Positions 268-10,472 of a stretch of 11,397 bases of DNA are shown piece after piece. Made by a program: the position numbers and the translations under genes. Location of the stretch: positions 1-11,397 of the forward strand of contig JBHLQH010000068.1 of NCBI GenBank assembly GCA_048884965.1, in the 5' to 3' direction. The stretch is from Candidatus Thorarchaeota archaeon. GTDB taxonomy: Archaea; Asgardarchaeota; Thorarchaeia; Thorarchaeales; Thorarchaeaceae. The number at the start of each line of letters is the position of its first letter. The stretch's first letter is position 1. The notes below the pieces were generated by a model that worked only from the letters and a program-made list of their open reading frames with translations, ran no database searches and was not told the DNA's origin.

Positions 268-621
268 TCAACCGCAGCACGAGGATTTCGTACTGCTACA
301 TCCACACGATGAGTCGGAGTCAGAGCTCTCAGGCTGTTCCTTAGCACCGACCACGGTGTCCTCGCATTCTCCACGTCGCCGAGCGGACTGGTTCCAGATA
401 CATCCACAGCCCACATTCGTCACCGTGATGGCATTGCCTAGGCAGTTCTTTGCACAGGCAGTGCAGTTGGTACAGTCATCCGGACGTGCCATGATAGCAG
501 GACCCTTCTCAGGGAGCTCCCAGACATTGAATGGGCAGACCTCTAGGCAGAGCCCACACCTATTGCATGCTAGTGGATTGTACAGTAAATCTGTTCGTCG
601 TTCTTGAACTGTAATCGTCAT
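268..621 (-). CDS. hgcB: HgcB-like 2x[4Fe-4S] ferredoxin with extended Cys-rich C-terminal tail (divergent from canonical HgcB)
   Basis: Two CxxCxxCxxxC motifs (CNRCGLCLEVCP, C19-C29; CTNCTACAKNC, C50-C60). These are followed by AITVTNVGC, resembling HgcB AIxVxxGVGC, and a terminal vicinal Cys pair (SSCCG*). The gene starts 4 nt after the hgcA-like stop. The second motif deviates from canonical C(M/I)ECGAC. Confidence 0.82.
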   Translation of the reverse strand: MTITVQERRTDLLYNPLACNRCGLCLEVCPFNVWELPEKGPAIMARPDDCTNCTACAKNCLGNAITVTNVGCGCIWNQSARRRGECEDTVVGAKEQPESSDSDSSCGCSSTKSSCCG

Positions 622-625
622 ATTA

Positions 626-2338
626 TCACCAACCTAGGATGAATGTAAGGATATTGAACCCGATGATGAAGAGACCTCCGATCTTCAGTGTCCATATCAG
701 ATAAGGATACTCTTGTCTTATGACCTTTGGGTCGCTCACAGGAGTCATACCTGCGAAGTCCATTGTCAGAGTAATGGATAGCACGAATTGAGCTGCTAGC
801 CATGTGACGAAAAGTGTCCAGTGGGCGTTCAGGAGGAACATAATGATAGCAGCCACTGGCATGGTAATCAGAGCAAAGCCAATGCCTCGACGAATAAAGG
901 AGTTGTCCTTCGAAGGCAGAACCGGGAAGATCAGACCTAGTACCAGTGCATTTCCAAGGAGCGCCAGAAGGAACTGGAGAACTAAGAGAGATACTGAGAG
1001 GCTTGTGGGCAATAGCAATGAGAATACCGCTGGGAGGAGAAAGAATAGGAAAGCATTGATTCCTAACAATCCAACCACCAAAGCAGCAAATGGCTTCCAT
1101 AGGATCGCAGCGAAAAGGAAGGGGACGTGTGCCACTGTCATCTCCAGTCGTTCTTTGAGATTGAAGGTCACAGAAGCCATCTCTCTCGGCTTTGGCCGGG
1201 GCTTCTCTAGGTTCATCCATTTTGATAGGTCCTGAATCCTCACTGGGCCATATTTCACCCTGAAACCTGTTCTTTCTCGAATCTCAGTCGTATCCATCCC
1301 TGCAGCTGCAAGCTGAGGTAGAATCAGCTCTCGATGATTCACAATCCTCTGAAGTTCAGTCATCCTGATCATATGGATAACATCATCGCTATTGAAGTGA
1401 ATTCCACGAGCAGCACACCAGACATTGATGCCATCAGTGTCGCAGACCAATACCCAAGCCTCGATATTGTCCTTTGCTAATGCTCGCATGACAGTATAGT
1501 ACGTCAGCTCATAGTTTGCTGTCACAATGACAGGACTATCAGGAGATGGATTGCCTATCTTGAAGAGACCCGGTTGTACAGGCATGCCCCTCCAGCTGCC
1601 TGTAAGATGATTATACCAGATTCGACTCCTCGCACCGATTCCTGTGTAGGGGCGATCTAGGTTTGTATAGGGATTGGGTACTTCCTGTGATCCATTGGTA
1701 CCAACAACGAAGGTTATCTCAGAACCGTATGACTCGATGGTATCAATCTCTAGTCCAGCAATCTGAACGAGTTGAGTAAGGTCAATGACAGGCGGAGGGA
1801 GTCGTTTTCCAGCTTGTTTCTCAGCATCTCTACGATTCGTCCAGAATCTCTTTTCGTCCGCACGTTTCTTGGGGAGGGTCTCTGAGGCAATAGCAAATAC
1901 TCCATTCTCTTTTAGCAGGCCTCTCACAATTTTCATGAAGAGGTCTCGACGAGATGGCTTGAGTTCGGATAGTAAGAACGTACTGACAATAAGGTCGAAC
2001 CTTTCCGATGGATCCAGTTGCTTGTCGATGTCTTCGCCTACTTGCAAGACATCCTGATGAATGAAATCCGGAGGGTTATTCATTTCTTTTACCTTTGCCC
2101 GCGCCGTGTGAATCATCTCTTCGTTGGCATCGATTCCAACCACAGCAGCACCCTTCATCGAAGCCTCAATGACGAACAATCCGGGACCGCAACCAAGGTC
2201 TAATACCTTCATTCCAGGTTTGACCAGATCAAGTATCTTCTCTCGAATCTGAGAGGCACGTCCATCAAGCACCTTGTCGAAGGCTTGATCATATGTTTCA
2301 GGCTCTCTTTCAAGAGCTGCCATAAATGCGACTGCCAA
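626..2338 (-). CDS. hgcA: Fusion of class I SAM-dependent methyltransferase (aa ~1-215) and HgcA-like corrinoid-binding domain with transmembrane region (aa ~235-570)
   Basis: N-terminus: SAM motif I VLDLGCGPG, VVGID, FDLIVS and LLKENG. Centre: the HgcA/CdhD-like motif series PVQPGLFKIGNPSPDSPVIVTANYELT, DTDGINVWCAARG, HRELILPQLAAAG, TGFRVKYGPVR and EMASVTFNLKERL. C-terminus: about 5 hydrophobic helices with PVLPSKDNSFIRRG and MDFAGMTP matching HgcA TM-region motifs. TTG start at 2338 has a strong SD; ATG at 2323 is an alternative start. The symbol denotes homology only. Confidence 0.9.
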   Translation of the reverse strand: MAVAFMAALEREPETYDQAFDKVLDGRASQIREKILDLVKPGMKVLDLGCGPGLFVIEASMKGAAVVGIDANEEMIHTARAKVKEMNNPPDFIHQDVLQVGEDIDKQLDPSERFDLIVSTFLLSELKPSRRDLFMKIVRGLLKENGVFAIASETLPKKRADEKRFWTNRRDAEKQAGKRLPPPVIDLTQLVQIAGLEIDTIESYGSEITFVVGTNGSQEVPNPYTNLDRPYTGIGARSRIWYNHLTGSWRGMPVQPGLFKIGNPSPDSPVIVTANYELTYYTVMRALAKDNIEAWVLVCDTDGINVWCAARGIHFNSDDVIHMIRMTELQRIVNHRELILPQLAAAGMDTTEIRERTGFRVKYGPVRIQDLSKWMNLEKPRPKPREMASVTFNLKERLEMTVAHVPFLFAAILWKPFAALVVGLLGINAFLFFLLPAVFSLLLPTSLSVSLLVLQFLLALLGNALVLGLIFPVLPSKDNSFIRRGIGFALITMPVAAIIMFLLNAHWTLFVTWLAAQFVLSITLTMDFAGMTPVSDPKVIRQEYPYLIWTLKIGGLFIIGFNILTFILGW

Positions 2339-2340
2339 CT

Positions 2341-2733
2341 CTAGACCTCCTTCATAACGCCAACGAATTTCTTCACTGCTTCTCTACAGTCATCAGACAA
2401 TGAGTAATAGGTCCACCGCCCTCTTCGTTCACTATGGAGACACCCAGACTCCCGCAATTGTCTAAGATGGTGTGAAACTAGAGGTTGCCGCTCCTCATTG
2501 AGTGCGGCTTGGAATTCGCAGACGCACGCTTCACCAATCCTGTAAAGGAAAAGCACAATGCCTGTGCGGATTCCAGCTGAGAATATGGTAGAACTGAGCG
2601 GAGAGAAAGATTCCACAAATTTTTCCATTGCTTCAAGACGTGTTTCATACGGGACGCAACAAGGTGCTTTCTCAGGAACCTCCTTGCAGAACTTCTGAAG
2701 GTTCTCAACTCGTTCAACATAATCGCGGGTCAT
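2341..2733 (-). CDS. arsR: ArsR/SmtB-family metal(loid)-sensing transcriptional repressor
   Basis: Winged HTH signature RTGIVLFL...EACVCEF...QPLVSHHLRQLRESG...ERRGRWTYYSL. It carries an alpha3 ELCVCD-like motif (C70, C72) and N-terminal C16, C25 and C26. The stop lies 2 nt before the start of the methyltransferase-HgcA gene. Confidence 0.92.
   Translation of the reverse strand: MTRDYVERVENLQKFCKEVPEKAPCCVPYETRLEAMEKFVESFSPLSSTIFSAGIRTGIVLFLYRIGEACVCEFQAALNEERQPLVSHHLRQLRESGCLHSERRGRWTYYSLSDDCREAVKKFVGVMKEV
2345..2352 (-). promoter_or_regulatory. Shine-Dalgarno site (AAGGAGGT) for the methyltransferase-HgcA fusion, embedded in the last arsR codons
   Basis: The minus strand reads ATG AAG GAG GTC TAG AG TTG, placing AAGGAGGT 6 nt before the TTG at 2338. 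Confidence 0.75.
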
Positions 2734-2753
2734 AGATGTTCGTATAAGTCTAA

Positions 2754-2763
2754 TTTATATAAA
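2754..2763 (-). promoter_or_regulatory. Archaeal TATA box for the arsR-hgcA-like-hgcB-like operon (probably leaderless transcript)
   Basis: TTTATATAAA lies 21-30 nt upstream of the arsR ATG (2733), the typical TATA distance for a leaderless archaeal mRNA. There is no SD before arsR. Confidence 0.7.
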
Positions 2764-2785
2764 CCTAGTGAATATAGTAATACTT

Positions 2786-7597: not shown

Positions 7598-8770
7598 TCA
7601 TAATTTCTTTAGAGGGATGCTGAAAATGAAACATACACCCTTGGTATGGTCACCTTTGACACTATCTTCAATCCAAAGGTCGCCTCCATATCTATCAATG
7701 ATCCGTTTCACTAGGGTAAGGCCAATTCCTGTCACACGCTTGCTAGCATCGTGCTGCCCAGAGAGAATCGATTGCTTCCTTCTATCATCGATACCAGGAC
7801 CGGAATCCTTGATGATTAGGGTTAGAAAATGCTTCGAATCGTCTTTGACATGCACATCTATCTGCACAAAGTTAGAGGGGTCAAGTCGTACAGAATTGTG
7901 GAGAAGATTATAGAAGACATCGACGAGAAATTCGTCCGCATGAACTTGATACATGTTCTCACTGAAATCTTTCGTGATATGGATTTCTTTTTCAGGAAAG
8001 GTGTTCTTGATCATCTCTTCCGCAACAACTAGGGAGGAGTAGGGATCTAGAAAAATCAGATCGAGTGTTTCACCCTCTAGTGCTGCAAGTTTCTTGACAT
8101 AGCTTACCAATGCTGCACCGCGTTTGCTTTGCGAAAGTGCTGCGTGAACAAGATGATGGATTTCCTCATTGAGCAGACCTCCTTCTAACATTAGCTCCAT
8201 ACTTGACATAATCCCCTGCATCATGTTAGAGAGATCATGTGCCATCAAATCATTGTAGAATGCTGCAGTTTCGAGGGCTTCCTCCAGTGCCTTCTTCGCT
8301 TGCACTGTTTCTGTGATATCAAGCATGGAAATAATGACCATTTCGTAGGTGTTTCGGAATTCCTCGGGAACGGAGAGACCCATTAGGATGTGCCTTGGTT
8401 CGCCCTTAACTGTACTCAATGTTACAGTACACTCAAACTTGTGACCTCCATCAGCGATGGTCAATATCTCCCCCAGAAAAAGGTACAAAGCATCCTTGAC
8501 CAGTATCTTTCCTAGACTGCCAAGAAGCTCCTCTTCGGTTTTGACGCCTTGTAGGTCAAGCGTGGCTTTGTTCACACGGATGACTTTCACTAGATTTGCG
8601 CATTTCCAAATCTCATCAGGATCGTCTTCGAAATACTTGCGCAGGTCATCTATTCCCTGCGCCTTCAGACTGTCAATATACTTCTTGACATCAGAGAAGT
8701 CTTCCTCCCATAATGATACTGGAGAATCCTCAAAAAGTGTCAGATACCGACTCTCCACGTCTGGGCTCAT
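7598..8770 (-). CDS. Soluble PAS-domain sensor histidine kinase
   Basis: PAS (RYLTLFEDSPVSLWEEDFS...VNKATLDL...LDITE), H-box DLMAHDLSN, N-box DVFYNLLHNS, G1 DSGPGI and G2 GIGLTLVKRII. No TM segment. Confidence 0.92.
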   Translation of the reverse strand: MSPDVESRYLTLFEDSPVSLWEEDFSDVKKYIDSLKAQGIDDLRKYFEDDPDEIWKCANLVKVIRVNKATLDLQGVKTEEELLGSLGKILVKDALYLFLGEILTIADGGHKFECTVTLSTVKGEPRHILMGLSVPEEFRNTYEMVIISMLDITETVQAKKALEEALETAAFYNDLMAHDLSNMMQGIMSSMELMLEGGLLNEEIHHLVHAALSQSKRGAALVSYVKKLAALEGETLDLIFLDPYSSLVVAEEMIKNTFPEKEIHITKDFSENMYQVHADEFLVDVFYNLLHNSVRLDPSNFVQIDVHVKDDSKHFLTLIIKDSGPGIDDRRKQSILSGQHDASKRVTGIGLTLVKRIIDRYGGDLWIEDSVKGDHTKGVCFIFSIPLKKL

Positions 8771-8948
8771 TTTCTATGCCTCTATCTCTTCAACGTACTC
8801 TTTTGATTATAGCAGATATCGAGAAATACGTTGTGTTCAATATAAGGATGGCTCAGATGTCGATATAGAGATTTCATCTACATTTTTCTGCACCATGACA
8901 CAATGCTCAAATGGCATTGCACAAGTGAGTGTGGAAGATGGGATGCCT

Positions 8949-10472
8949 ATGCGTTTCGCAACTAAGGAAACTCTCACAGAGGAAGAGATTGAGCAGGGAC
9001 TCAACGCGGTCATCCGTGATGGAGTGACCTCCCAGATCAAGCTCACCCTGACAGAGAGCGTCTTCTTGGTTGCATTCGCACTGGCACTAGGAGCGTCAAA
9101 CTCAGTCATTGGTATCCTAGCAGCTATACCACCTCTCGCGCAGCTTCTTCAGCTACCCTCAATCTATCTTGTCGAGCGACTGCGACGGAGAAGAATGATT
9201 ACAGTCATTGCATCAGCGGCGAGTCGAAGCTCTATCTTCGTCATGGCACTGATCCCACTATTCATGCCAAATATAGAGGGACTCATCTTGCTCATTCTCT
9301 CAGTGATCACACATGCTGTGTTCAATGCCATGTCCACAACAGCGTGGAACTCATGGATGCGAGACCTGATTCCTGAGGAACGACTTGGGAGGTTCTTCTC
9401 GAAGAGATTGCTTGTCCAGACGTTCTTGGGAGTGATTGCAACACTAGCTACTGGATTCTTCCTTGAATGGTGGATAACGTCCATGATAGGTCAAGAGATC
9501 ATTGGGTATTCCTTCGTCTTCTTTGCAGGATTTATCGCTGGTATGATAGGGGTCTATATTATTTCCACAATACCTGAACCATCCATGCGACCTCTTGAAA
9601 CGTTTCCAAGCTTCTCAGAGCTCGTGAGAGCCCCTCTCAAGAATGAGAACTACAGGAACCTTATGTTCTTCTCAAGTACATGGAGTCTTGCGACTGCGCT
9701 TGTTGCACCGTTCTTTACTGTGTACCTACTCGTAAGACTTGGTTTCCCAATCTCGACGGTCACAGTACTCTCAGTAGTGACTCAGTTGACAAGCATAATG
9801 TTCTATAGATTGTGGGGAAGACTTTCCGATCGATTCAGCAACAAGGACGTTCTACAGGTTACTGCCCCAGTTTTCATCATTGGGATAATTCTGTGGATCT
9901 TTGCGGGGATGCCAATCCTGATCGGATTTATCCTTCCCCTTGTGATTCTTATCCACATCCTGCTAGGCTTCGGTGCGGCTGGCATCAATCTAGCTTCTGG
10001 CAACATGGCATTGAAGCTTGCACCAAAAGGGGAAGCGACTCCCTTCTTAGCCTCTTGGAGCTTTGTTAATTCCTTTGCTGCAGCTGTTGCTCCGTTCTTA
10101 GGAGGGGTGATAGCTGATCTGCTGGCTGGAACCCAGTTCATCATCTCTGCAGAGATAATCAGCGATGGAGCCCCTATACAGATACCAGTTATGATATTCA
10201 CGGGACTAGACTTCCTCTTCATCATATCCTTCTTAGTTGGCCTCTATGCTTTACATAGGCTCTCTATCGTGAGAGAAACTGGAGAGGTCGAAGAGAGTGT
10301 GATTATAGCAGCAGTGCTAGCAGAGGCGCGAAGAGGCTTTAGGAACTTGTCCACGGTGGATGGGCTCAGGAATACTTTCGCACCTCTATTTGGATTGTTG
10401 AACCAGCTTGCTTCGAACAACAAAAAGAACGATAAGAAAAAGCAGGATAGCACTTCAAATCAGGAATCCTGA
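8949..10472 (+). CDS. Major facilitator superfamily (MFS) transporter
   Basis: About 12 hydrophobic helices with MFS loop motifs (LVERLRRRR, WMRDLIPEERLGRFFS, WGRLSDRFSNK). The real start is probably ATG 8949 or 8943; the ORF-track extension to 8457 runs antisense into the kinase gene. Confidence 0.88.
   Translation: MRFATKETLTEEEIEQGLNAVIRDGVTSQIKLTLTESVFLVAFALALGASNSVIGILAAIPPLAQLLQLPSIYLVERLRRRRMITVIASAASRSSIFVMALIPLFMPNIEGLILLILSVITHAVFNAMSTTAWNSWMRDLIPEERLGRFFSKRLLVQTFLGVIATLATGFFLEWWITSMIGQEIIGYSFVFFAGFIAGMIGVYIISTIPEPSMRPLETFPSFSELVRAPLKNENYRNLMFFSSTWSLATALVAPFFTVYLLVRLGFPISTVTVLSVVTQLTSIMFYRLWGRLSDRFSNKDVLQVTAPVFIIGIILWIFAGMPILIGFILPLVILIHILLGFGAAGINLASGNMALKLAPKGEATPFLASWSFVNSFAAAVAPFLGGVIADLLAGTQFIISAEIISDGAPIQIPVMIFTGLDFLFIISFLVGLYALHRLSIVRETGEVEESVIIAAVLAEARRGFRNLSTVDGLRNTFAPLFGLLNQLASNNKKNDKKKQDSTSNQES

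Follow-up and report, generated by a model that had tools for sequence, protein, structure and literature searches.

A putative ArsR-controlled methyltransferase and HgcA-like fusion operon in a Thorarchaeota archaeon, a divergent Asgard relative of the CpaM and HgcAB-like family

Introduction

Canonical mercury methylation systems, such as that of P. mercurii ND132, comprise HgcA (NF040863), whose corrinoid domain has a Cys-on cap helix (NVWCAAGK) and is joined to a five-helix membrane domain, and an adjacent ferredoxin, HgcB (NF040864), which has two [4Fe-4S] clusters, an additional Cys and a pair of cysteines at its C-terminus. No methyltransferase domain is part of canonical HgcA. In these systems SAM methylates Co(I) of HgcAB, and the HgcB clusters have been assigned to electron transfer (PMC11588087). 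This use of SAM by a protein that lacks a methyltransferase domain gives no reason for a fused one, a point against the cycle proposed below. A second family, catalogued by NCBI, pairs the corrinoid protein-associated methyltransferase CpaM (NF043040) with HgcAB-like proteins (NF043039). It corresponds to the "fused HgcAB" described by Podar 2015 and Lin 2023 and is found, for example, in Pyrococcus furiosus; its methyltransferase is a separate protein, whereas the corrinoid part and the ferredoxin form one polypeptide.

Two other systems share single modules with the locus described here. The large subunit of CFeSP (AcsC/CdhE) from the Wood-Ljungdahl pathway has a homologous C-terminal corrinoid-binding domain; however, CFeSP is soluble, lacks the Cys ligand, receives its methyl group from methyl-tetrahydrofolate or pterin through a TIM-barrel methyltransferase and passes it to the nickel of acetyl-CoA synthase. 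ArsM shares the class I SAM methyltransferase fold and the ars-operon setting under ArsR control, but its own cysteines bind As(III), and it works independently of a corrinoid. Asgard sequences have been placed in the fused-hgcAB clade in a study that removed the first 327 alignment positions as poorly aligned and leaves a methyltransferase domain unmentioned (PMC10083202); these sequences may or may not be the fusion family analyzed here. In the literature searched, we found no mention of a methyltransferase domain on HgcA.

Results

The putative operon lies on the minus strand of a Candidatus Thorarchaeota contig, in a window of 11,397 nucleotides (the whole stretch of DNA that was analyzed). 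It consists of arsR (2733-2341, 130 aa, ATG start), a fused methyltransferase and HgcA-like gene (2338-626, 570 aa, TTG start) and the gene for an HgcB-like ferredoxin (621-268, 117 aa, ATG start). The intergenic gaps are 2 nt between arsR and the fusion gene (TAG-ag-TTG) and 4 nt between the fusion and ferredoxin genes (TGA-taat-ATG), with GGAGGT located 6 nt 5' of the fusion TTG and GGTGA 4 nt 5' of the ferredoxin ATG. Homologues of the fusion protein start with MAVAFM at the site matching the TTG start. Profile searches detected HTH_5 in the regulator, Methyltransf_25 (aa 45-146) and the CdhD C-terminal corrinoid domain (aa 254-369) in the fusion protein, and a Fer4 dicluster in the ferredoxin. 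The three closely spaced co-oriented genes, the Shine-Dalgarno sites and the upstream TATA box described in the first-pass annotation are all in place, and the profiles bear out its reading of the gene order. Conservation of this synteny in other genomes, the absence of which had been set beforehand as a test against the proposal, is clear: in 75 of 80 related loci the fusion gene is followed by an HgcB-like gene, an arrangement kept far beyond chance. Searches for biosynthetic genes within the window returned none.

The N-terminal part of the fusion protein (~aa 1-232; 1643..2338, minus strand) is a CpaM-like class I SAM methyltransferase domain with motif I VLDLGCGPG. CpaM is the best match for aa 4-168, and among the 36 matches of the CpaM profile to methyltransferases of this genome the domain ranks first, at 130.4 bits (cut-off 180), with the next at 67. 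Related fusions (P0185, P0075 and P0289) pass the same cut-off at 213-283 bits. When aligned to three bona fide CpaM proteins and to three fusions of the triple or dual type, the domain shares the invariant residues M6, L9, E10, P13, Y16, G49, G51, G53, D70 and E153. The domain has the family hallmarks of CpaM, namely the N-terminal M..LE..P..Y pattern, GxGxG, D70 and E153, together with the linkage to an HgcA-like corrinoid domain. Foldseek matched the domain to class I methyltransferases, and its nearest HMM and structural relatives are small-molecule methyltransferases such as BchM/ChlM, UbiE/UbiG, CmoA and CysG. ArsM profiles matched weakly (29-34 bits). The only cysteine in aa 1-240, C50, sits inside GCGPG, and the As(III)-binding cysteines of ArsM are absent; direct, ArsM-like arsenic binding by the fused domain was therefore rejected.

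The HgcA-like corrinoid-binding domain follows (aa 245-390; 1169..1606, minus strand; PF03599, E 1.4e-23) and is also similar to the CFeSP gamma subunit (2h9a, E 2.4e-14). Its invariant columns, including the cap-helix Cys, are common to canonical HgcA and HgcAB-like proteins. The cap helix itself (1426-1403, minus strand) reads NVWCAARG, with Cys308, in this protein and is found in 115 of 117 fused proteins, whereas the canonical form ends in GK; relative to the canonical motif N(V/I)WC(A/S)(A/G/S)GK, it retains the Cys and carries RG in place of GK. In a motif census, GK was missing from most proteins that have a methyltransferase at the N-terminus or a ferredoxin at the C-terminus; P0275, P0291 and P0280 were the exceptions found. 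The C-terminal membrane domain (aa 394-567; 638..1159, minus strand) was modeled by AF2 with five long helices (pLDDT 85, pTM 0.79), as in canonical HgcA. The top Foldseek match of the model, over 332 columns, is the HgcAB model 9a0b_A, which is itself a computed rather than an experimental structure. Searching solved structures by sequence yielded CFeSP and generic methyltransferases alone, with no HgcA entry. The genome encodes cdhD/cdhE and therefore uses corrinoids.

Docking of the methyltransferase domain against the corrinoid domain scored 0.53 (best control 0.01). Of 80 solved complexes, 58 attained this mark, as did two of 110 mismatched pairs; at values of 0.60 or lower it was attained by only seven of the 80 complexes and by both mismatches. 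Contact agreement between runs was at least 66% and partner pLDDT at least 83. These predictions weakly back a contact between the two domains. In the Thor paralogues L102 and L103, an in-frame TGA falls exactly at the boundary between the same domains. We rejected selenocysteine at this position; a plain stop between two genes is the simpler reading.

The ferredoxin (268..621, minus strand; Fer4 families) has the layout of HgcB: two CxxCxxCxxxC clusters (C19-C29 and C50-C60), a GCGC at positions 71-74 immediately following cluster 2, and a tail rich in Cys that closes with a C-terminal Cys pair (CCG). All of these motifs are conserved in 75 linked ferredoxin homologues, with the GCGC and the terminal pair invariant. 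Its score against the HgcB profile is 44.3 bits, under the cut-off of 99.

These scores bear on the placement of the operon. The fusion protein scores 194.7 bits with the canonical HgcA profile (cut-off 275; canonical controls 334-445) and 223.9 bits, over profile positions 10-281, with the HgcAB-like profile (cut-off 285), which is thus the better match; for the ferredoxin part of NF043039, the match (49.6 bits) lies in the next gene, which is separate. The HgcA and HgcB profile comparison proposed at first pass consequently reveals relatedness under the cut-offs, and the same is true of every curated cut-off for this copy save that of ArsR. The operon has the non-GK cap helix (NVWCxxxG) and the CpaM partner of the HgcAB-like family, its CpaM N-terminal invariants and its module order: methyltransferase (M), corrinoid and membrane domain (A), ferredoxin (B). 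The arrangement, however, differs. HgcAB-like systems have a separate M and a fused A-B, while the Asgard copy has M-A and a separate B, divided from the fusion by the TGA stop and the 4-nt gap. The Asgard form also differs in its ARG cap helix, longer Cys-rich ferredoxin tail, ArsR control and Asgard-wide spread. All three module states occur: M|AB, MA|B (this operon) and MAB. A bona fide CpaM gene lies directly upstream of bona fide HgcAB-like fusions in all three informative loci, and triple fusions pass both the CpaM and the HgcAB-like cut-offs; M, A and B are therefore obligate partners in three fusion states, and natural intermediates and triple fusions link the Asgard form to the CpaM and HgcAB-like form. 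Judged by HMM scores, motifs and a published tree, the fusion operon is a divergent Asgard branch of the NCBI CpaM and HgcAB-like family. It had been put forward as a candidate new system, a description we do not retain: the methyltransferase is a CpaM relative, the corrinoid part belongs with the catalogued HgcAB-like family, discussed since 2015, and just the fusion point differs. The fusion was matched in 130 of 301 sampled Asgard genomes, including that of the cultured Promethearchaeum syntrophicum MK-D1.

The regulator scores 59.4 bits with NF033788 (cut-off 55) and also matches PF01022. It carries C70-V-C72 in alpha-3 and the N-terminal cysteines C16 and C25-C26; CVCE is invariant in 40 locus-linked ArsR homologues, in which N-terminal Cys are also present, so that the thiol-type site suggested earlier is real. 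In the canonical ND132 system the cysteines of ArsR2 are described elsewhere in the protein, in contrast to the alpha-3 CVC site of the Asgard ArsR. Arsenic and SAH both elicit a response from the ArsR linked to hgcAB in ND132, and sensors of the ArsR family can answer to other ligands. A SahR-type (SAH-sensing) identity was rejected for the present protein, which has 130 aa, lacks the effector methyltransferase-like domain and has the CVC site. An arsR gene is located upstream and co-oriented in eight Thor-type loci and on the opposite strand, at most 3.5 kb upstream, in 32 Loki-type loci; it is absent from about half of the informative Thor-type loci.

Alignment of nine upstream regions revealed a conserved promoter/operator block of ~37 nt (2741..2777, minus strand), kept 5' of arsR in eight other Thorarchaeota-type loci, the rest of whose upstream sequence lacks conservation. 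The block contains the TATA-like TTTATATAAA (2763-2754, ~25 nt 5' of the arsR ATG), two copies of an AGAyTTATAy-like repeat and an inverted repeat of the ATATAAA-N5-TTTATAT type that overlaps the TATA box. A degenerate 19-mer derived from it matches just those nine promoters among 99 loci and occurs once in the window (0.01 expected). The 4.09-Mb genome, searched with up to one mismatch, likewise holds one occurrence, with no operator-like copies for a wider regulon beyond the operon's own site; the regulon search therefore adds no substrate clue.

Neighboring genes in the Loki-type branch do provide such a clue. In MK-D1, the gene immediately upstream, in the same orientation, encodes an ACR3 arsenite-efflux protein (295.3 bits, cut-off 282.8); three further loci have a co-oriented ACR3 gene in this position at 270-274 bits, and the ACR3 motif PCTAMV is found ~700 nt upstream in at least 27 Loki-type (Lokiarchaeial) loci. 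We found no acr3 in this window or in other Thor-type loci, and the arsenic link thus rests on the ~30%-identical Loki-type branch together with ArsR. Some Loki-type loci also have an EamA exporter, flavin reductases and a cupin 3' of hgcB.

Discussion

The mechanism that best fits these observations is a three-module methyl-transfer cycle at the membrane. Electrons from the HgcB-like ferredoxin would bring the corrinoid, bound Cys-on in the HgcA-like domain, to the Co(I) state; the CpaM-like domain would bind SAM and present it to this Co(I), with CH3-Co(III) and SAH as products; and the methyl group would then pass to a thiophilic ion, a soft metalloid held on the ferredoxin cysteines (GCGC and the C-terminal CC), most likely As(III) or Sb(III). 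ArsR would bind the repeat overlapping its own TATA box and let go when a metalloid binds the CVC/N-terminal Cys site. We consider the SAM-to-corrinoid relay likely. For the explanation as a whole, a putative autoregulated, ArsR-repressed operon encoding this machine with As/Sb as the most likely acceptor, the balance tips modestly in favor.

The first-pass annotation held that the substrate could not be read from sequence. This does not wholly stand, since the ACR3 genes of Lokiarchaeia and the CVC site of ArsR favor As(III)/Sb(III) over Hg. Nevertheless, this genome carries a bona fide ArsM and an Acr3 elsewhere, so As(III) methylation by the operon would be redundant. As(III)/Sb(III) as the methyl acceptor is a tentative assignment, to which we give somewhat less than even weight.

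The same relay could instead methylate something other than a metal, for example a small metabolite, a lipid, a peptide or a protein located at the membrane, with ArsR and acr3 reflecting mere co-regulation under metalloid stress. The closest methyltransferase relatives do act on small molecules, and the exporter, flavin reductases and cupin that follow hgcB at some Loki-type loci would suit such a role. We nonetheless think it unlikely. The linkage to ArsR recurs in two gene arrangements, in branches ~30% identical, and the window is devoid of biosynthetic genes. The ferredoxin GCGC and terminal CC are kept in all 75 linked homologues, and the matching HgcB cysteines have been reported as crucial for mercury methylation (PMC11588087).

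That last parallel raises the question of a true mercury methylase, in which Hg(II) would be methylated as by canonical HgcAB and the fused domain would just improve SAM delivery. In its favor, the fusion protein has the Cys of the cap helix and a membrane domain of five helices, the ferredoxin has the HgcB-type Cys behind cluster 2 as well as the terminal pair, and the top structural match is an HgcAB model. The archaeal (Sulfolobus) mercury regulator is also reported to be ArsR-like. SAM is, moreover, the donor for HgcAB (PMC11588087). However, both the HgcA and the HgcB cut-offs are failed, the cap helix is not among the six motifs of confirmed methylators (PMC10087281), and the protein falls with the HgcAB-like clade, in which the organisms tested produced no methylmercury. 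With acr3 rather than mer genes in the neighborhood of its relatives, we regard a true mercury methylase as quite improbable.

Corrinoid chemistry other than methyl donation, such as reductive halomethane dehalogenation or anaerobic demethylation of methylarsenicals, would leave the methyltransferase domain only to reactivate oxidized cobalt, in the way established for MetH, where Co(II) is reactivated reductively with SAM. As(III) from demethylation would be exported by Acr3; we know of no oxygen-independent route of methylarsenite demethylation. A 2026 preprint describes CCl4 dechlorination by heterologous HgcAB. Nothing at the loci suggests halomethanes, though, and CpaM is coupled 1:1, as an obligate partner, to the corrinoid protein in all three fusion states, which points to stoichiometric catalysis rather than occasional repair and makes this reading very unlikely.

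Returning to the metalloid-methylating relay, a bolder version would have the module dedicated to the corrinoid-dependent methylation of As(III)/Sb(III), with SAM-driven metalloid methylation ancestral to the HgcA superfamily and Hg methylation a side activity of one branch. This we hold to be doubtful. If true, a dedicated As/Sb methyltransferase would be the missing enzyme behind the methylcobalamin-based methylation of arsenic that, according to McBride and Wolfe in 1971, anaerobes reportedly carry out.

For environmental surveys, our results mean that Asgard fusion sequences should not count as mercury methylation genes. Since the family is present in about half of good-quality Asgard genomes, a cultured strain among them, expression and activity experiments are feasible. 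The Asgard variant joins a SAM-binding methyltransferase directly to a corrinoid protein and thereby bears on the native function of the HgcAB superfamily, for which its tie to ArsR, along with ACR3 in Lokiarchaeia, offers a concrete As(III)/Sb(III) substrate hypothesis.

Operon structure and promoter

The first-pass annotation had proposed an operon of ArsR, a methyltransferase-HgcA-like fusion and an HgcB-like ferredoxin, and this operon is real, conserved and well described: its genes lie where they had been placed and the Pfam domains agree. All three are on the minus strand: arsR (2733-2341; 130 aa, HTH_5), the fusion gene (2338-626; 570 aa, TTG start, Methyltransf_25 at residues 45-146 and the CdhD C-terminal corrinoid domain at residues 254-369) and the ferredoxin gene (621-268; 117 aa, ATG start, 4Fe-4S dicluster). 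Gaps of 2 nt (arsR/fusion) and 4 nt (fusion/ferredoxin) separate them. GGAGGT lies 6 nt 5' of the fusion TTG, which aligns with the start (MAVAFM) of homologues at the same position, and GGTGA lies 4 nt 5' of the ferredoxin ATG.

A TATA-like element, TTTATATAAA (2763-2754), is only ~25 nt 5' of the arsR ATG, so that the predicted transcript is leaderless or nearly so. When 126 nt 5' of arsR from the window and eight related loci were aligned, a block of ~37 nt (consensus CTATATnCA...ATTTATATAAACTAGATTTATATG) was conserved in all nine regions, and the sequences farther upstream were unrelated. Within the block, an inverted ATATAAA-N5-TTTATAT overlaps the TATA box and is accompanied by two AGATTTATAT-like repeats, a layout that would be expected of a repressor competing with the basal transcription machinery. 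Among 99 loci, a degenerate 19-mer derived from the block matches just the nine promoters; it matches once in the window (0.01 expected) and once in the whole genome with up to one mismatch; thus, ArsR appears to govern its own operon only. Upstream, a 16-bp hairpin followed by a U-rich stretch (2857-2821, minus strand; fold z = -3.7) lies 34 nt past the stop of the CPBP-protease gene (2891); the simplest reading is a terminator of that gene that shields the arsR promoter, and not a riboswitch-like part of the operon.

The window is an entire 11.4-kb contig of a 4.09-Mb genome (95.7% complete), and the closest source-named homologues of the fusion protein are from Thorarchaeota. The rest of the contig encodes a CPBP-type protease, an MscS channel, a DUF7847 and a DUF362 protein, a histidine kinase, an MFS transporter and a GNAT acetyltransferase; no metal or corrinoid link was seen among these genes in the window annotation. 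The longest MFS frame (8457-10472, plus strand, 671 aa) shares ~300 nt with the 5' end of the histidine kinase gene (7598-8770, minus strand); because its MFS domain does not begin until residue 202, translation probably starts at an internal codon.

Family assignment and fusion states

The best NCBIfam match of the N-terminal domain is CpaM (NF043040, "corrinoid protein-associated methyltransferase"), with 130.4 bits versus a cut-off of 180. Of 36 class I methyltransferase matches in the genome, this domain has by far the highest CpaM score (132 bits; the next scores 67), and it shares M6, L9, E10, P13, Y16, GxGxG, D70 and E153 with stand-alone CpaM. The remainder of the fusion scores 223.9 bits with HgcAB_like (NF043039; cut-off 285), and the fusion scores 194.7 bits with HgcA_corrinoid (NF040863; cut-off 275). 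The separate ferredoxin scores 49.6 bits with the ferredoxin end of HgcAB_like and 44.3 bits with HgcB (cut-off 99).

The bona fide HgcAB-like fusions P0139, P0239 and P0207 (380-396 bits) each have a bona fide CpaM gene (220-272 bits) directly 5', with gaps of 17, 6 and -4 nt. Three triple fusions of 582-635 aa (P0202, P0221 and P0293) combine CpaM, an HgcA-like part and an HgcB-like ferredoxin and score above both the CpaM and HgcAB_like cut-offs, and the dual methyltransferase-corrinoid fusions P0185, P0075 and P0289 exceed the CpaM cut-off. Denoting the CpaM-like methyltransferase as M, the HgcA-like corrinoid and membrane part as A, the HgcB-like ferredoxin as B and a gene boundary as a bar, these arrangements show that the modules always occur in the order M, A, B, as M|AB, MA|B or MAB. 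The window has the MA|B form and belongs to a divergent branch specific to Asgard archaea. The suggestion that it is a new system therefore gives way to that of a variant of a catalogued family; the novelty over that family is in the moved fusion point, the scores below family cut-offs, the ArsR/ACR3 linkage and the Asgard-wide spread.

Other fusion states were also seen. Some Thor-family genomes carry a paralogue with the cap helix NVWCGSRG (L102:273-2072, minus strand; L103:333-2276, plus strand), where the methyltransferase and corrinoid parts share one frame, interrupted by one TGA precisely where the domains meet, reflecting either two adjoining genes or a read-through/selenocysteine site; these paralogues show how easily the fusion state can change. 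Several Thorarchaeota-family genomes (G087:C39:8260-9612, G149:C57:5504-7105, G170:C37:1961-3301 and others) have a second open frame of ~650 aa, with ~30% identity to residues 3-450 of the window protein, possibly a triple fusion resembling P0221; none was found in the window's own genome. In protein P0275, a canonical HgcA (334 bits, GK cap helix) is fused to a canonical HgcB (108.8 bits), and thus a C-terminal ferredoxin alone does not define the HgcAB-like family.

Among 23 aligned MA proteins, the cap-helix motif N-V-W-C-A/G-A-R-G is invariant save for one A/G position; among all retrieved proteins, 115 of 117 methyltransferase-fused proteins have NVWCAARG, and unfused canonical proteins have NVWCAAGK or a listed variant. 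In a library of representatives at 50% identity, NVWCxxxG rather than GK predominates where a methyltransferase is fused N-terminally or a ferredoxin C-terminally, the exceptions found being P0275, P0291 and P0280. Lacking GK, the window protein is "hgcA-like" and not high-stringency hgcA by published criteria (PMC10087281). Window-type fusions, canonical HgcA and HgcAB-like proteins have corrinoid-domain invariants in common.

A full-text literature search for hgcA with "methyltransferase domain" returned no relevant paper. Lin 2023 (PMC10083202) reported Asgard sequences in the fused-hgcAB clade, which may or may not be window-type fusions; the first 327 alignment positions were dropped there as poorly aligned, and a methyltransferase domain is not mentioned.

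Distribution in Asgard archaea

The fused methyltransferase-corrinoid architecture was found in 148 sequence clusters, and complete proteins are ~550-590 aa long in all 120 clusters listed. The available source names are Thor-, Prometh-/Loki-, Hermod-, Hod-, Sif- and Odinarchaeota. A pattern scan with one genome per species was positive in 185 genomes, among them the cultured Promethearchaeum syntrophicum MK-D1. Matches at E <= 1e-30, a count that takes in shorter paralogues, were present in 130 of 301 sampled genomes of the phylum and in 46 of the 90 high-quality ones. The MA fusion has two branches, Thor-type (50-99% identity to the window protein) and Loki-type (~30%). An HgcB-like gene lies directly 3' of the fusion in 75 of 80 fetched loci, at least three of the other five being cut by a contig end, and all 75 linked ferredoxins retain both cluster motifs, with GCGC(I/L)W right behind the second cluster and CC or CxC at the C terminus.

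Structural models

The AlphaFold2 model of the window fusion (23-row alignment; mean pLDDT 85, pTM 0.79) consists of a Rossmann-type methyltransferase, an alpha/beta corrinoid domain and five long helices (394-567); a short helix (309-314) falls in the cap-helix motif. Its top Foldseek match is 9a0b_A (E 1.5e-11, 332 columns), a computed HgcAB model (Cooper et al. 2020), followed by class I small-molecule methyltransferases. A sequence-based search for an experimentally solved HgcA found none, the closest being CFeSP gamma subunits. Docking of the methyltransferase domain (1-240) and the corrinoid domain (245-390) with SAM scored 0.53 (best control 0.01), with at least 66% contact agreement between runs and partner pLDDT of at least 83. 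Of 80 solved complexes and 110 mismatched pairs, 58 and 2, respectively, scored at least this high; among these, only 7 of the 80 solved complexes but both mismatches were at or below 0.60, and the calibration is only roughly valid because custom alignments and a ligand were used. Docking thus lends weak support to the predicted contact between the two domains.

Linkage to arsR and acr3 genes

Homologues of ArsR are encoded directly upstream and co-oriented in eight Thor-type loci, about half of the informative ones; in 32 of 61 Loki-type loci, one is encoded on the other strand, no more than 3.5 kb upstream. Helix alpha-3 carries C-V-C-E in all 40 linked ArsR homologues, each of which has N-terminal cysteines as well; most Thor-type proteins have KAPCC there, and most Loki-type proteins LCxCxxC. 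In R773 ArsR, the alpha-3 CVC is the site for As(III)/Sb(III); in the Corynebacterium ArsR and CadC-type sensors, the site combines N-terminal and alpha-3 cysteines.

In MK-D1, the gene lying between a divergent arsR and the fusion gene is a bona fide acr3 for arsenite efflux (TIGR00832, 295.3 bits versus a cut-off of 282.8), co-oriented with the fusion gene and 48 nt upstream of it. The acr3 gene also occurs in three further loci (270-274 bits), and a scan with a back-translated ACR3 motif (PCTAMV) found it ~700 nt upstream and co-oriented in 27 Loki-type loci and in none of the Thor-type loci. From these neighbourhoods, the Lokiarchaeial module belongs to an ars operon, with arsR divergent from acr3-MA-hgcB. 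Additional genes were seen at individual Loki-type loci. The divergent arsR of MK-D1 is followed directly, in the same orientation, by a gene for an ICMT/PEMT-family membrane methyltransferase (L066:1137-1796, minus strand), and a weak DUF166/DfsP-like gene lies between divergent arsR and acr3 at another locus (L040:1643-2398, plus strand). At a third (L093:10056-12636, plus strand), an EamA-family transporter gene begins 2 nt past the ferredoxin gene, followed by two flavin reductases and a cupin, possibly accessory genes for export or electron supply.

At the window locus, the ArsR regulator is the only ars gene. The bona fide ArsM (G000:C44:12242-13000, minus strand; 304 bits, cut-off 263) and ACR3 (G000:C17:17111-18070, plus strand; 291.5 bits, cut-off 282.8) of this genome are encoded on other contigs, and a genome scan found no operator-like motif near either. 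[quoted passage not shown]

Proposed mechanism and significance

That M, A and B occur joined in every combination makes it very likely that they are coupled physically and functionally. The most economical reading of the parts list and its conservation is a three-step relay: the HgcB-like ferredoxin would reduce the corrinoid to Co(I), the CpaM-like domain would deliver the methyl group of SAM, and the resulting methyl-Co(III) would pass it to a soft metalloid held by the ferredoxin cysteines. In purified HgcAB, Co(I) was methylated by SAM and not by methyl-tetrahydrofolate, and the HgcB clusters were ordinary electron-transfer clusters (Zheng et al. 2024, PMC11588087).

The least secure element of this mechanism is the acceptor. 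ArsR and acr3 speak for As(III)/Sb(III); the ArsM encoded in the same genome and the lack of acr3 from Thor-type loci weaken that case. Mercury is a possible acceptor; organisms with fused HgcAB made no methylmercury (Podar 2015; Capo 2022, PMC10087281). A non-metal acceptor is also possible, as is corrinoid chemistry other than methylation. The MA-hgcB-like module merits experiments, as it provides a concrete way to test what the HgcA superfamily natively does.
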